From assembly GCF_000026545.1 (NCBI RefSeq), contig NC_011601.1: DNA of 64,000 bases, one strand, 5' to 3'. Made by a program: the position numbers and the translations under genes. The notes under the pieces were generated by a model. It worked only from the letters and a program-made list of their open reading frames with translations, was not told the origin of the DNA and searched no databases. The stretch is from Escherichia coli O127:H6 str. E2348/69. GTDB taxonomy: Bacteria; Pseudomonadota; Gammaproteobacteria; Enterobacterales; Enterobacteriaceae. Positions 7,496 to 52,465 of the stretch are shown here, piece by piece. The first letter of the stretch is position 1, and the number at the start of each line of letters is the position of its first letter.

Positions 7496-8533
7496 ATGTT
7501 TTCCGCATTGCGCCACCGTACCGCTGCCCTGGCGCTCGGCGTATGCTTTATTCTCCCCGTACACGCCTCGTCACCTAAACCTGGCGATTTTGCTAATACC
7601 CAGGCACGACATATTGCTACTTTCTTTCCGGGACGCATGACCGGAACTCCTGCAGAAATGTTATCTGCCGATTATATTCGCCAACAGTTTCAGCAAATGG
7701 GTTATCGCAGTGATATTCGGACATTTAATAGTCGGTATATTTATACCGCCCGCGATAATCGCAAGAGCTGGCATAACGTGACGGGAAGTACGGTGATTGC
7801 CGCTCATGAAGGCAAAGCGCCGCAGCAGATCATCATTATGGCGCATCTGGATACTTACGCCCCGCTGAGCGATGCTGACGCCGATGCCAATCTCGGCGGG
7901 CTAACGTTACAAGGAATGGATGATAACGCCGCAGGTTTAGGTGTCATGCTGGAACTGGCTGAACGCCTGAAAAATACGCCTACCGAGTATGGTATTCGAT
8001 TTGTGGCGACCAGCGGCGAAGAGGAAGGAAAATTAGGCGCTGAGAATTTACTCAAGCGGATGAGTGACACCGAAAAGAAAAATACGCTGCTGGTGATTAA
8101 TCTCGATAACTTAATTGTTGGCGATAAGCTGTATTTCAACAGTGGCGTAAAAACACCTGAAGCAGTAAGGAAATTAACGCGCGACCGGGCGCTGGCAATT
8201 GCCCGCAGCCATGGAATTGCCGCCACCACAAATCCAGGTTTGAATAAAAACTATCCGAAAGGCACCGGGTGTTGTAATGACGCAGAAATATTCGACAAAG
8301 CCGGTATTGCTGTACTTTCGGTGGAAGCGACTAACTGGAATCTTGGCAATAAGGATGGTTATCAGCAACGCGCAAAAACAGCCGCATTCCCTGCAGGAAA
8401 TAGCTGGCATGACGTAAGACTGGATAATCAACAGCATATTGATAAGGCACTTCCTGGAAGAATAGAACGCCGCTGCCGTGATGTTATGCGGATAATGCTA
8501 CCGCTGGTGAAGGAGCTGGCGAAGGCATCTTAA
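7496..8533 (+). CDS. iap: alkaline phosphatase isozyme conversion aminopeptidase (M28 family)
   Basis: 345-aa ORF with a signal peptide (AALALGVCFILPVHA) and M28 metal-ligand region (HLDT...DDNAAG...GEEEG). Divergent from cysD as in K-12. Confidence 0.93.
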   Translation: MFSALRHRTAALALGVCFILPVHASSPKPGDFANTQARHIATFFPGRMTGTPAEMLSADYIRQQFQQMGYRSDIRTFNSRYIYTARDNRKSWHNVTGSTVIAAHEGKAPQQIIIMAHLDTYAPLSDADADANLGGLTLQGMDDNAAGLGVMLELAERLKNTPTEYGIRFVATSGEEEGKLGAENLLKRMSDTEKKNTLLVINLDNLIVGDKLYFNSGVKTPEAVRKLTRDRALAIARSHGIAATTNPGLNKNYPKGTGCCNDAEIFDKAGIAVLSVEATNWNLGNKDGYQQRAKTAAFPAGNSWHDVRLDNQQHIDKALPGRIERRCRDVMRIMLPLVKELAKAS

Positions 8534-8593
8534 TGGGTTTGAAATGATTACTCCCTTGCCTGCAGGAAATCAATGCCACCAGAAACAGAGTAT

Positions 8594-8657
8594 AAAAAAG
8601 GGTGCAGGAGACCAAACCATCACAATTCAGTACGCGGGGTTTTACCCCGCGTGGTGG
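8594..8657 (-). other. hok mRNA 3' UTR: stem-loop plus putative fbi (fold-back) element ending in a U-run
   Basis: Minus strand after the hok stop reads CCACCACGCGGGGTAAAACCCCGCGTAC...GGTCTCCTGCACCCTTTTTT. There is a hairpin CGCGGGG/CCCCGCG (8633-8651). The 3' segment GGUCUCCUGCACCC can pair with the proposed 5' end GGGUGCUUGAGGCU at 10053-10040 (6 bp + 2-nt bulge + 6 bp, including G-U pairs). Confidence 0.55.
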
Positions 8658-8810
8658 CTACTTCTTCGATTCGTAAGCGAGAACTGCCTTAAACTCCATA
8701 CCACGTTCTCTGATACTCAACTCACACAACGAGTCGCCTACCATCAACGTGAATCCCAGTACTGTACAACACAGTACGATGATTGCCACAAGGGCATATT
8801 TTGTCAGCAT
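8658..8810 (-). CDS. Hok/Gef-family type I toxin (50 aa); coding frame intact but separated from its own SD, leader and promoter by the IS
   Basis: My own translation of the minus strand is [50 protein letters not shown]. It has an N-terminal TM helix, the conserved SLCE cysteine motif and a C-terminal AYES-K tail as in Hok of plasmid R1, and closely resembles K-12 HokE as I recall it. It falls below the 60-aa cutoff of the ORF track. Confidence 0.85.
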
Positions 8811-8813
8811 GTC

Positions 8814-9909
8814 TGTGTAAGTTCACAGAGATATTGCAATTGCCTCCGGATAAGTAAGGGGAGATTGCACTATGCAAATGCAGCATCTGATGGTTGGCTA
8901 TCCTAAGTACTACCAAACGGCCGATTATGCGTTGAGGCTTTCAGTGATGGCTGATATAGCAACAATGAGAATGAAGGCTCTGCACTTCTGGGATAAACAC
9001 GGTATTTCTGCAGCTTCTGAAGCCTTTGGCGTGTCCTGCCGCACGCTTTACTGGTGGCGTCAGTTACTGAACAAGGAAGGACCTGAGGGGCTAATCCCGC
9101 ACAGTAAGGCACCTCTGGTGCGACGAAAAAAACACTGGCATCCCGATGTGCTGAAAGAGATTCGACGCCTCAGGACAGAGCTGCCGAACCTCGGTAAAGA
9201 GCAGATTTTTGTTCGCCTGAAGCCCTGGTGCGAACAGCGCTATCTGGCCTGTCCGAGTGTTTCCACCATCGGCAGAATGATCGCTGCCGCACATGATAAA
9301 ATGCGGATGATACCTGTGCGTCTGGGATCGCGGGGGAAGGCACTGCTTGTCAAAAAGCGGTCTGCCAAACCCCGCAGGCCAAAGCACTACCGCCCGGTAA
9401 AGACAGGTGAGCTCATTGGGATGGACGCCATTGAGCTCAGAATGGGCGAACTGCGTCGCTATGTCATCACCATGATCGACGAATGCAGCAATTACGCGCT
9501 GGCGCTGGCTGTGCCGTCACTCAACAGTGATATCGTCAATCACTTCTTCAGCCGCGCAGCCCGGTTGTTCCCGGTCGGTATCAGCCAGATAATCACAGAT
9601 AACGGAAAAGAGTTCCTGGGAAACTTCGACAAAACGCTGCAGGAAGCCGCTATCAAACACCTCTGGACCTATCCCTACACGCCAAAAATGAACGCTATCT
9701 GTGAACGTTTTAACCGGACGTTAAGAGAGCAGTTTATTGAATTTAATGAGATTTTACTCTTTGAAGATCTGGCGCTATTTAACCAGAAGCTGGCGGAATA
9801 TCTGGTGCTGTATAACAGCAAAAGACCCCACAAGGCGCTCGCACTAATGACGCCCGTGGAATATATTTTAAAAGAGAATAAAAATTGCAATATGTGGTGG
9901 ACCCATACA
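8814..9909 (+). mobile_element. ~1.1 kb insertion sequence, single-ORF DDE (rve) transposase, IS481-like (IS3 superfamily)
   Basis: Imperfect terminal inverted repeats: left TGTGTAAGTTCACAGAGATATTGCAATT, and reverse complement of the right end TGTATGGGTCCACCACATATTGCAATT (TGT...ACA ends, about 20 of 28 matches, one indel). Flanked by a 5-bp direct repeat ATGTC (8809-8813 and 9910-9914). Confidence 0.8.
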
Positions 9910-10146
9910 ATGTCTTGCCTCCTTGCAAAGAAGAGACTAACATCCGAATTGCTTAGGTTCGAACGTAGGCCTCAGGTTGATAGAAATATCGCCTGGGGCT
10001 TTTGTCCATCTGGAACCTCGCGAATGCTTAACGCCAGACAGCCTCAAGCACCCAACGCCATTCTATACCTGTTAATTTTCCCTGCGATGTTCACCTTTAA
10101 ATGCCGGAATGCTGCTCGCAAAATAAAAACGCCCCATCATTTCTGA
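8872..10146 (+). CDS. IS transposase (HTH + rve/DDE integrase core); the ORF runs through the right IR, and the last ~79 codons are read-through into flanking DNA
   Basis: 424-aa ORF with SD AAGGGGAG 9 nt upstream. It has an N-terminal HTH region (GVSCRTLYWWRQ) and a DDE triad context (IGMDAIE ... ITDNGKEF ... YTPKMNAICERFNRTLREQF). No stop codon occurs before the IS end at 9909. Confidence 0.8.
   Translation: MQMQHLMVGYPKYYQTADYALRLSVMADIATMRMKALHFWDKHGISAASEAFGVSCRTLYWWRQLLNKEGPEGLIPHSKAPLVRRKKHWHPDVLKEIRRLRTELPNLGKEQIFVRLKPWCEQRYLACPSVSTIGRMIAAAHDKMRMIPVRLGSRGKALLVKKRSAKPRRPKHYRPVKTGELIGMDAIELRMGELRRYVITMIDECSNYALALAVPSLNSDIVNHFFSRAARLFPVGISQIITDNGKEFLGNFDKTLQEAAIKHLWTYPYTPKMNAICERFNRTLREQFIEFNEILLFEDLALFNQKLAEYLVLYNSKRPHKALALMTPVEYILKENKNCNMWWTHTMSCLLAKKRLTSELLRFERRPQVDRNIAWGFCPSGTSRMLNARQPQAPNAILYLLIFPAMFTFKCRNAARKIKTPHHF
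9915..10065 (-). promoter_or_regulatory. orphaned hok promoter and leader (tac 5' end, small mok-like leader ORFs, Sok target, hok SD)
   Basis: Minus strand reads TAGAAT (-10, 10065-10060), then 6 nt, then GGGTGCTTGAGGCTGTCTGG (compare the R1 hok 5' end GGCGCTTGAGGCTTTCTG as I recall it) ... CTTTGCAAGGAGGCAAGACAT. Joining across one copy of the ATGTC duplication restores AAGGAGGCAAGACATGCTGACA, that is SD plus 6 nt plus the hok ATG. Confidence 0.65.
9950..10004 (+). ncRNA. candidate Sok-like antisense RNA (~55-65 nt)
   Basis: Plus-strand promoter with -35 TTGCCT (9915-9920), 17-nt spacer and -10 TAACAT (9938-9943). Terminator hairpin GCCUCAGG/CCUGGGGC (9969-9999) followed by UUUU (10000-10003). 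The RNA is fully antisense to the hok leader. The ends are predicted, not measured. Confidence 0.5.
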
Positions 10147-10157
10147 CAGAGGCGTTT
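10127..10157 (-). terminator. intrinsic terminator downstream of cysH
   Basis: Minus strand reads AAACGCC-17 nt loop-GGCGTTT followed by TTATTTT, 18 nt after the cysH stop. Confidence 0.55.
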
Positions 10158-10174
10158 AATTTATCCGGCAATAT

Positions 10175-10909
10175 TTACCCTTCGTGTAATCCACATTCCC
10201 TTTTTAAGCCAAAGAAACGCGTTTCTTCTTCCGCCATGCCGGGTTCCCATTTACGGGTTGTATGGGTATCGCCCACCGATAAATATCCTTCATCCCATAA
10301 TGGGTGATATTTCAGGCCATGTTTTTGCAGGTACTGATAAATAGTTCGGTTATCCCAGTCGATAATCGGCAGCACTTTAAATACGCCACGCTGAATTGCC
10401 AGCACCGGTAAATTGGCGCGACTGCCGGATTGTTCACGGCGCAGGCCAGCAAACCAGGTTTGCGCATTCAGTTCTTTCAGCGCCCGGTTCATCGGTTCGA
10501 CTTTGTTGATGTCATTGTACTTTTCAATGCCTTCAACGCCCTGCTCCCACAGTTTGCCGTAGCGTGCTTCCTGCCAGGCGGCGCTTTCGGTAGCACGATA
10601 CACTTTCAGGTTGAGCTTGAGTTTGTCCGTTAACTCGTCAATAAAGCGGTAGGTTTCCGGGAACAGATAGCCGGTATCGGTGAGGATCACTGGAATATCC
10701 GGGCGAATCTGATTCACCAGATGCAGACTCACCGCCGCCTGAATGCCAAAGCTGGAAGAAAGTACATATTCACCGGGCAGATTATCCAGCGCCCAGGCTA
10801 CGCGGCCTTCAGCGTCCAGTTTTTCCAGTTGGGCGTTAGTTTCCGCCAGCGCCAGAATCCGGTCTACCTTTGGCAGTTCGTTCAGGGCGTTTAGATCGAG
10901 TTTGGACAT
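10175..10909 (-). CDS. cysH: phosphoadenosine phosphosulfate (PAPS) reductase
   Basis: Track ORF 10175..11062. The conserved start [21 protein letters not shown] is Met52 of that ORF, giving 244 aa. It has the C-terminal ECGLH motif. The upstream extension runs through a REP element and is not coding. Confidence 0.95.
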
Positions 10910-52063: not shown

Positions 52064-52107
52064 AAAGCAACCTCAATAAGAAAAACTGCCGCGAAGAATA
52101 GCAGGAA

Positions 52108-52465
52108 TAAAAAAAGGGAGCACTGTATTCACAGTGCTCCCGGTTCGTTTCGCAGCATTCCGGCTACTTTTATTGCTCCCTGCTCATCCTTGACAACTTT
52201 TCCTCTGGCCTTACGGCCAATCGTTCATCCTGAACTATTGCTTCCTGCTCACACCACCCCGATGTGATACTTCATCCTGAAGTGTTCCTGGCCTTCCTGA
52301 CCCACCGAATCATCCTGACCGGTTCTCATTCTCCATCCTGGAGGTGTCCTTTAACGCGTCCTGCGTCATCCTCTTCGCTTCATCCAGAAGCCTTTCCCTG
52401 AAACACCATCCTGGTGTGTCCTTCAGAAGTGTCATCATCCTGATGTTCACTTCGTTGTCTGACTC
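52108..52465 (-). ncRNA. csrB: CsrB, CsrA-sequestering small RNA
   Basis: The minus strand begins GAGTCAGACAACGAAGTGAACATCAGGATGATGACAC and ends with the terminator GGGAGCACTG...CAGTGCTCCC followed by seven T. I count about 18-19 GGA motifs, many as CAGGATG. It matches my memory of K-12 csrB; the ends are approximate. Confidence 0.92.

Follow-up and report, generated by a model that had tools for sequence, protein, structure and literature searches.

An IS481-Family Element Interrupts the hokX/sokX Toxin-Antitoxin Locus of Escherichia coli E2348/69, and Elements of Its Kind May Home to Promoters

Introduction

What is encoded between iap and cysH in the chromosome of Escherichia coli O127:H6 str. 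E2348/69, and could the product still be made there? We considered these questions in a stretch of 64,000 nucleotides (nt) from contig NC_011601.1 (RefSeq assembly GCF_000026545.1), hereafter "the window", in whose numbering all positions are given. An initial annotation, drawn from the letters alone, had described a complete type I toxin-antitoxin locus of the hok/sok type in this gap. All of the features that it listed are indeed there, including an open reading frame (ORF) of 50 amino acids (aa) at 8810..8658 on the minus strand. We conclude with high confidence that this gap holds the chromosomal type I toxin-antitoxin locus hokX/sokX of E. coli, which is closely paralogous to hokE/sokE, and that the allele present here has been disrupted by an insertion sequence (IS) of the IS481 family. 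Direct support for this identification comes from the family membership of the peptide and of the mRNA leader, from the boundaries of the IS and the duplication that flanks it, from conserved pairing between the mRNA ends, and from allele frequencies. The word "complete" does not hold: the IS splits the ribosome-binding site from the ATG, and the allele is most likely inactivated by it.

Results

The hokX toxin ORF (8658..8810, minus strand) is intact and encodes 50 aa, but has no ribosome-binding site of its own. The peptide matches the Hok/Gef family (PF01848) at 39.1 bits against a cut-off of 22 (E = 5.7e-10), and the match spans profile positions 1-42 of 42. It falls below the NCBIfam equivalog cut-offs for HokA (53 versus 89) and for the Hok subfamily (39.5 versus 73), and thus is a member of the Hok/Gef family that corresponds to neither named equivalog. 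A gap-free alignment shows it to be 78% identical to K-12 HokE. The peptide has a hydrophobic segment at residues 6-24 and a cysteine, C29, within DSLCEL, which bears out the N-terminal helix and the SLCE cysteine of the initial annotation. The protein accession is identical to that of uninterrupted alleles.

On the same strand, the 5′ leader of the hok mRNA (9915..10053) carries the tac 5′ end GGGUGCUUGAGGCU, the region targeted by Sok, and the ribosome-binding site AAGGAGG (9925..9919); it has been severed from the ORF by the IS. This leader matches Rfam RF01794 at 104.6 bits (gathering threshold, 59), with 10053..9904 aligned to model positions 1-157, so that the match overlaps the end of the IS by 6 nt. 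The E value is 4.7e-24 for the scanned region and 1.1e-22 when the whole window is searched, in which this is the sole such match. The leader of an intact allele (strain FDAARGOS_536) scores 112 bits. The -10 box assigned to the hok promoter, TAGAAT (10060..10065, minus strand), was read directly; after a 6-nt spacer it is followed by the proposed 5′ end GGGTGCTTGAGG, starting at 10053, and the RF01794 model begins exactly at this G. In homologous loci, AGAAT stands 6-7 nt before GGGTGC. For the hok promoter, we saw no convincing -35. A simple promoter/terminator scan of 8500-10200 returned neither the hok nor the sok promoter, yielding only the cysH terminator and a weak match inside the ORF; it therefore lends the promoters no independent support. 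Two other RNA candidates were below the Rfam thresholds and were set aside: ctRNA_p42d (10118-10159), which is the hairpin of the cysH terminator, and the archaeal snoRNA sR19 inside the IS.

The element that parts leader from ORF occupies 8814..9909 on the plus strand. It is 1096 bp long and has about 75% nucleotide identity to ISKpn28, its nearest named relative; its boundaries were set by comparison with the uninterrupted allele of FDAARGOS_536 and with K-12. It ends in the imperfect terminal inverted repeats TGTGTAAGTTCACA... and TGTATGGGTCCACC..., each of which holds ATATTGCAAT. A target-site duplication flanks it, with one copy on the leader side (9910..9914; ATGTC on the plus strand, GACAT on the minus strand) and the other on the ORF side (8809..8813), where it takes in the first two letters of the hok ATG; in the intact allele, this sequence stands only once. 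When 8814..9909 and one GACAT are removed, AAGGAGG-CAAGAC-ATG is restored. Hence, the strong ribosome-binding site that the initial annotation had placed 6 nt before the ATG is there once the insertion has been taken out. With the IS in place between AAGGAGG and the ATG, the promoter, leader and ORF are no longer contiguous on one transcript. Copies of the IS that are 100% identical occur elsewhere in E. coli chromosomes and plasmids, and one of them is annotated as "IS481 family transposase". Across the 5426 complete E. coli genomes and PLSDB, the IS is found at about 4500 places.

The transposase of this element matches NF033577 at 221.6 bits, just below the cut-off of 224 because the frame is cut at the end of the IS; rve, rve_3 and helix-turn-helix (HTH) domains were also matched. 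Its reading frame (8872..10146, plus strand) contains no stop up to the last base of the element. The result is a 424-aa ORF, of which 346 codons lie within the IS and 78 more run across sokX and the hok promoter. RefSeq labels the gene "incomplete; missing C-terminus". The coding sequence of ISKpn28 likewise ends 42 nt outside its element. Since such frames end beyond the element, the C-terminus of the transposase depends on the insertion site. Judging by this arrangement, read-through transposase transcripts would contain Sok-sense sequence.

The reconstructed hok mRNA, with the IS removed, would run for 359 nt from 10053 to 8594. Its proposed 3′ end, GGTCTCCTGCACCC at 8613..8600 on the minus strand and then TTTTTT at 8599..8594, constitutes an fbi element with a U run (GGUCUC-CU-GCACCC; 8594..8613). 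The minimum free energy (MFE) of this RNA is -133.2 kcal/mol (z = -4.99), and 0 of 100 shuffled sequences folded as well. In the MFE structure, nt 1-6 pair with nt 348-353 and nt 9-14 with nt 340-345, giving 12 base pairs that close the 5′ end onto the 3′ end, as the initial annotation had foreseen from the letters. A G+C-rich hairpin in the 3′ untranslated region, ACGCGGGG-TAAAA-CCCCGCGT (8632..8652, minus strand), is found in both the MFE and the centroid folds and is conserved in homologues. When 30-45 nt were trimmed from the 3′ end in silico, nt 1-10 refolded onto nt 23-32, a behavior that has been described for the tac element of the R1 hok mRNA (PMC9841398).

Is this architecture maintained elsewhere? 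We collected 79 related loci, one genome per species, and aligned the 73 that were full length; they come from many enterobacterial genera. At least a dozen genera are represented, with the ORF intact (Escherichia, Citrobacter, Klebsiella, Kluyvera, Enterobacter, Raoultella, Scandinavium, Phytobacter, Kosakonia, Trabulsiella and others). The terminal 6-bp tac/fbi helix is paired in 100% of the 73 homologues, versus 37-52% when the 3′ partner is slid out of register; for the second helix, 78.5% of cells are paired. Closure of the 5′ end onto the 3′ end occurs in 72 of the 73 individual MFE structures, and the mean energy of the duplex between the two ends is -23.2 kcal/mol, compared to -14.3 kcal/mol for shuffled 3′ ends. 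The Pfam hidden Markov model (HMM), the covariance model, the predicted fold and the complementarity of the two ends among homologues therefore all favor the assignment to the hok/sok family that was first made by eye.

Codon 46 of hok (8673-8675) is TAC, encoding Tyr (UAC), in the context GCUUACGAA, and it is predicted to lie in a small hairpin loop. The surrounding nucleotides (8661-8684) are nearly invariant across the 73 homologues, at synonymous positions too. A recent preprint states that the hokC, hokD and hokE mRNAs undergo adenosine-to-inosine (A-to-I) editing at codon 46, to Cys. By analogy, hokX may be a substrate of the editing enzyme TadA as well.

The antisense partner, sokX (9951..10009, plus strand), is a 59-nt hairpin followed by UUUUG, and 55 of its 59 positions are identical to those of the K-12 noncoding RNA sokX (b4701). 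Its complement in the hok mRNA is nt 45-103. The promoter assigned to sokX, TTGCCT-17-TAACAT (9915..9943, plus strand), has its -35 at 9915-9920 and its -10 at 9938-9943, and the same hexamers stand upstream of K-12 sokX; the -35 overlaps, on the opposite strand, the hok ribosome-binding site. The antisense gene proposed by the initial annotation is accordingly borne out in its hairpin and its terminator-like tail, whereas the description of its promoter as "good" was generous: it agrees with the consensus at 8 of 12 positions and was among those missed by the scan.

Short leader frames that might act like mok, the upstream frame of R1, had also been proposed. Both are present, although such a role for them is uncertain. 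An 18-codon ORF (10009..9953, minus strand) has GAGG upstream and is not conserved among the homologues. The frame that starts at the ATG at 9943 has 12 codons after removal of the IS, with a TGA that overlaps hok codons 2-3, and is the only frame to pass through the ribosome-binding site. It is kept in 36 of the 73 homologues, the others carrying different frames, and its ATG doubles as the complement of the sok -10 box. With the IS in place, this frame runs into the element (54-aa ORF, 9943..9779).

These features bear directly on whether the toxin-antitoxin pair could still be working in E2348/69. Transcripts might reach the ORF by read-through or from an outward promoter in the left end of the IS, giving a low level of translation that SokX or a long antisense overlap would restrain. 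The ORF is, after all, intact and encodes the same protein as uninterrupted alleles; tac and fbi have both been retained and could pair with the IS between them; and no terminator-like site is predicted on the minus strand inside the IS. However, the 14 nt that now precede the ATG, GAACTTACACAGAC, derive from the IS and the duplication and contain no Shine-Dalgarno sequence, the nearest GGAGG being 27 nt upstream. Translation of R1 hok requires that an upstream frame be translated up to the hok ribosome-binding site (PMC9841398), and here that frame enters the IS. Further, the simple promoter scan found no outward promoter at the end of the IS, and the leader with which Sok pairs is now 1.1 kb from the ORF. 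A pair that still works in this genome is, on balance, highly improbable.

The locus itself was already known: hokX/sokX is named, annotated and common in E. coli, and the present copy is a minority, disrupted allele. It does escape an ORF filter set at 60 aa, as the initial annotation supposed, but it is neither hidden nor novel. The 1801 bases surrounding the locus match the E2348/69 chromosome at 100% identity, and RefSeq gives there the order iap, "Hok/Gef family protein" (WP_000956458.1), a pseudogene for an "integrase core domain-containing protein", and cysH. The hok gene, IS and cysH are the same in E. coli O103:H2, where the cas3 gene of a type I-E system, and not iap, precedes them. 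In K-12, the small RNA gene sokX (b4701) is annotated between cas3 and cysH, the same place as that of the window locus. Published work has placed hokX in the cysH-iap gap (PMC7232551), and found hok and sokX adjoining cysH in 90% of uropathogenic strains, the remainder having sokX alone, as does K-12 (PMC12736100). By our own count, the uninterrupted locus (the restored 442-bp sequence at a coverage of at least 80%) is present in 4147 of 5426 complete E. coli genomes, and the IS-bearing allele in 32 of the 5426; the K-12-like form matches the restored locus only from the ATG into the leader. This count agrees with the published picture, and the finding of the locus is therefore one that had been made before.

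The surroundings of the locus differ among strains. The type I-E CRISPR-Cas locus, which separates iap from hokX/sokX in K-12 and O103:H2, is wholly absent here; hokX therefore abuts iap, and only 60 bp (8534-8593) part the hok mRNA 3′ end from the stop codon of iap. No CRISPR repeat remnant was seen by eye in 8534-8593. In K-12-type strains, homology to hokX ends at GACATG, within 1-3 nt of the point at which the IS entered in E2348/69 (K-12 cas3-cysH gap compared to window 8808-8813). From this coincidence, the loss of the ORF in K-12 may have begun with an insertion at the same site. We also considered the K-12 junction as a remnant of the IS, given the TGTAT that follows GACATG there, but a match of 5 nt to the tip of the IS is insufficient for such a claim. 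Elsewhere in the window, the only other match to an RNA family is the CsrB small RNA (RF00018, 382 bits; 52106-52465, minus strand), which is expected for this part of the chromosome.

Might hokX alleles, even uninterrupted, be neutral relics without function, conserved only through recent common ancestry? K-12-type strains lack the ORF and keep sokX alone; the E. coli alleles are 93-99% identical to each other, too close to reveal selection; and the chromosomal hok loci that have been tested are reported not to mediate killing after rifampicin. Against decay of this kind, the full architecture persists in the dozen or more genera above, with an intact ORF and a terminal helix that pairs in every one of the 73 loci. 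Moreover, 42 of 45 Hok homologues, HokE included, were toxic in a recent survey. We regard the relic explanation as quite improbable, and retain the reading of an E. coli hokX/sokX locus with one allele disrupted by the IS.

Is the position of the IS peculiar to this allele? In the window, the right flank of the element reads ATGTC-TTGCCT-17 nt-TAACAT, that is, the IS is 5 bp upstream of the sokX -35. Plasmid pAA of strain IAL7255 carries an IS 99.7% identical to this one in another hok-type gene, where the duplication is AGTTT and lies directly before the ATG. ISKpn28 itself is found in the R1/F-type hok genes of Klebsiella IncF plasmids, where the duplication GGAG(G) is the hok ribosome-binding site and the element again lies 5 bp before the sok -35. 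The insertions in the window, in pAA and in the Klebsiella IncF plasmids have one common orientation.

We scanned metagenome contigs for the 26-nt right end that the two elements have in common and obtained 50 distinct right-end junctions. TTG occupies flank positions 6-8 in 25 of the 50, compared to a background of about 2% at other offsets (binomial p = 3e-29), and a position logo has T at 29, A at 30 and T at 34, equivalent to TAnnnT placed 17 nt after a TTGnnn hexamer. At TTG junctions outside hok loci, TAnnnT follows at a spacing of 16-18 nt in 9 of 15 cases, versus 3 of 99 control TTGs (Fisher p = 1.4e-7). At left-end junctions, TTG was absent from all 15. We asked whether TTG might belong to the IS end and not to the target; this idea was discarded, given that intact alleles carry ATGTC-TTGCCT in single copy and that left-end junctions never show TTG. 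An Rfam hok leader abuts nine of the junctions, and three more begin with CTCC-TTG and have truncated or undetected leaders. The hok-associated junctions lie 5 bp upstream of the sok -35 in one orientation, the sole exception being a contig (L093) in which the IS is further into the sok promoter. The duplications vary among hok loci (GACAT, AGTTT, GGAGG, GGAGA and CACTG). To recognize hok leaders beside the junctions, we used Rfam scans in place of an HMM of the hokX/hokE leader. That HMM recovered just 7 of the 51 sequences flanking the IS, since it does not reach the more divergent hok subfamilies and a second IS has cut into some of the leaders.

Several observations on these contigs stand apart. 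In three junctions (contig L119, 102-330, and contigs L191 and L172), the small RNA STnc100 (RF02076) starts 11 nt after the right end of the IS, which makes this another small-RNA promoter with the IS just upstream of its -35. In many plasmid-like contigs (L099, L100, L090 and related ones, in groups of 18, 3 and 2), the sok gene beside ISKpn28 is cut about 70 nt from the IS by an element that starts with TGTACTGACCCCAAAAAGTTGGAC; those hok/sok loci thus carry two insertions. A variant of the IS with about 93% identity lies between iss and iroB on ColV-type plasmids (contig L006, 2501-3585; 19 metagenome contigs). It has neither the TTG nor an evident duplication, which suggests that the copy is rearranged or degenerate; RefSeq marks it as frameshifted.

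The junctions lead us to a tentative proposal, which we rate slightly below an even chance. ISKpn28-like elements of the IS481 family may home to promoters of the sigma70 type, always inserting in the same orientation at exactly 5 bp from the -35 hexamer, on its upstream side, so that the transposase gene has its 3′ end toward the promoter. Strong small-RNA promoters such as those of Sok and STnc100 would be hot spots, and Hok would recurrently be severed from its translation signals while the antitoxin is spared. In the simplest reading, hok/sok loci are hit repeatedly because in every one of them the sok -35 overlaps the hok ribosome-binding site. Several considerations temper this proposal. 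Many contigs with both IS ends show no matching duplication, a sign of rearrangement or of chimeric assembly. Common descent may link some of the junctions, with the three STnc100 sites perhaps representing one event, and tolerance of insertions upstream of promoters could contribute to the pattern. In the literature that we covered, which is incomplete, we found nothing linking IS481 or ISKpn28 with hok or with a promoter preference.

A simpler account would have these elements in hok genes by chance, or by mere tolerance of insertions that silence a toxin, with no preference for sok promoters as targets. Any insertion that silences a toxin would be harmless or beneficial; hokA, hokC and hokE of K-12 are associated with other ISs (PMC7232551), with IS186 adjoining hokE; and about half of the junctions sampled lack TTG at the expected place. 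Nevertheless, an insertion at any point of the promoter, leader or ORF would be enough to silence hok, yet all of the hok junctions but the one noted above share a single spot and orientation. The same phasing of TTG recurs at sites outside hok, with its -10-like companion, and is absent from the left ends. We consider an origin by chance or tolerance unlikely, and continue below with promoter homing as the tentative explanation.

Discussion

From homology with plasmid R1 hok/sok and from the folds computed here, we infer how the intact locus would work: where its transcript starts and ends, how it is processed at the 3′ end, how Sok acts, and that the product is toxic. A promoter with the -10 box TAGAAT would give rise to the mRNA of about 359 nt, whose 5′ end (tac) would pair with its 3′ end (fbi) to hold the molecule closed and untranslated. 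Slow trimming of the 3′ end would allow the 5′ end to refold as a local hairpin, opening the leader both to translation and to the antisense RNA. The 59-nt SokX, expressed from a promoter whose -35 lies over the hok ribosome-binding site, would pair with nt 45-103 of the leader, and this pairing would block expression or trigger decay. Where Hok was nonetheless made, it would enter the inner membrane and kill or arrest the cell.

The consequences of the insertion would follow from its exact place. The IS inserted 5 bp ahead of the -35 of sokX, a position that puts it between the hok ribosome-binding site and the ATG. In this genome, Hok is very probably not produced, because the ORF has lost its ribosome-binding site, upstream frame, leader and promoter, all now 1.1 kb away. 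In contrast to the toxin, sokX has its own promoter, body and terminator, and probably is still transcribed, as in K-12, where sokX alone remains.

Some points weigh against this picture of a hok/sok locus that the IS has disarmed. In a covariation test on the tac/fbi helices, only two pairs changed on both sides, and the score was barely above that of shuffled alignments. Both ends are almost invariant and thus show little covariation; the support for the structure accordingly comes from conservation and energy, and not from compensatory change. A mok-type frame is not clearly identifiable among the 73 homologues compared. Transcription from the hok promoter across the IS, or an outward IS promoter that went unnoticed, could still yield some hok transcript. 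Finally, the chromosomal hok loci that have been tested did not mediate post-segregational killing, as cited in a preprint (bioRxiv 10.1101/2025.08.07.668861); therefore, even an intact hokX may be weakly active or inactive.

The allele can be placed among known systems. It shares with other E. coli hokX/sokX loci the position next to cysH, a leader that is 93-99% identical, 55 of 59 SokX positions (compared to K-12) and the protein accession of the uninterrupted forms. It differs from them in the IS between ribosome-binding site and ATG, while K-12 is without the ORF altogether. The closest paralogue is hokE/sokE of K-12, to which leader and ORF align throughout, with the 78% toxin identity given above. 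That locus also is disrupted by an IS, but it lies between ybdK and entD, and its IS186, just downstream of the hokE ORF, removes the 3′ fbi region, whereas in the window the IS parts the hokX ORF from its ribosome-binding site and leader.

The hok/sok (parB) system of R1 has a Hok of about 50 aa from the same Pfam family and a leader from the same Rfam family. Closure by tac and fbi, with refolding after 3′ trimming, is also common to both (PMC9841398 for R1; the predicted fold for hokX), as is an antisense Sok promoter that overlaps the translation initiation region of hok. The window locus, unlike R1, is chromosomal, and the 70-codon mok of R1 has no clear counterpart in it, the best candidate being the frame of 12 codons with its stop just within hok. 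A chromosomal copy is not expected to mediate post-segregational killing. As to the inserted element, it resembles ISKpn28 of Klebsiella pneumoniae in its length of about 1.1 kb, the terminal 26 nt of the right end, the presence of ATATTGCAAT in both ends, a transposase frame that outruns the element, and 5-bp duplications. The two are also alike in their target: ISKpn28 lies within the hok ribosome-binding site of Klebsiella IncF plasmids, 5 bp before the sok -35 (PMC6101004). The distinction between them is one of sequence, with a nucleotide identity of only about 75%.

A type I toxin-antitoxin locus can be recognized from raw sequence, and ORF filters set at 60 aa hide such genes. The significance of hokX/sokX itself is little changed by this work, and the locus matters more as an example of the disarming of a chromosomal hok and for the behavior of the element inserted in it; the target pattern of the IS is the part worth following. 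If promoter homing is true, these elements would count among the rare insertion sequences that recognize promoters, and the pattern would explain why hok/sok loci on plasmids and chromosomes of Klebsiella and E. coli so often bear this IS at the same spot. The elements would then serve as natural reporters of promoter positions, and their insertions might affect plasmid stability systems and the expression of neighboring genes. The disarming of type I toxin-antitoxin loci would, in that case, be recurrent and mechanistically determined, on chromosomes and plasmids alike.

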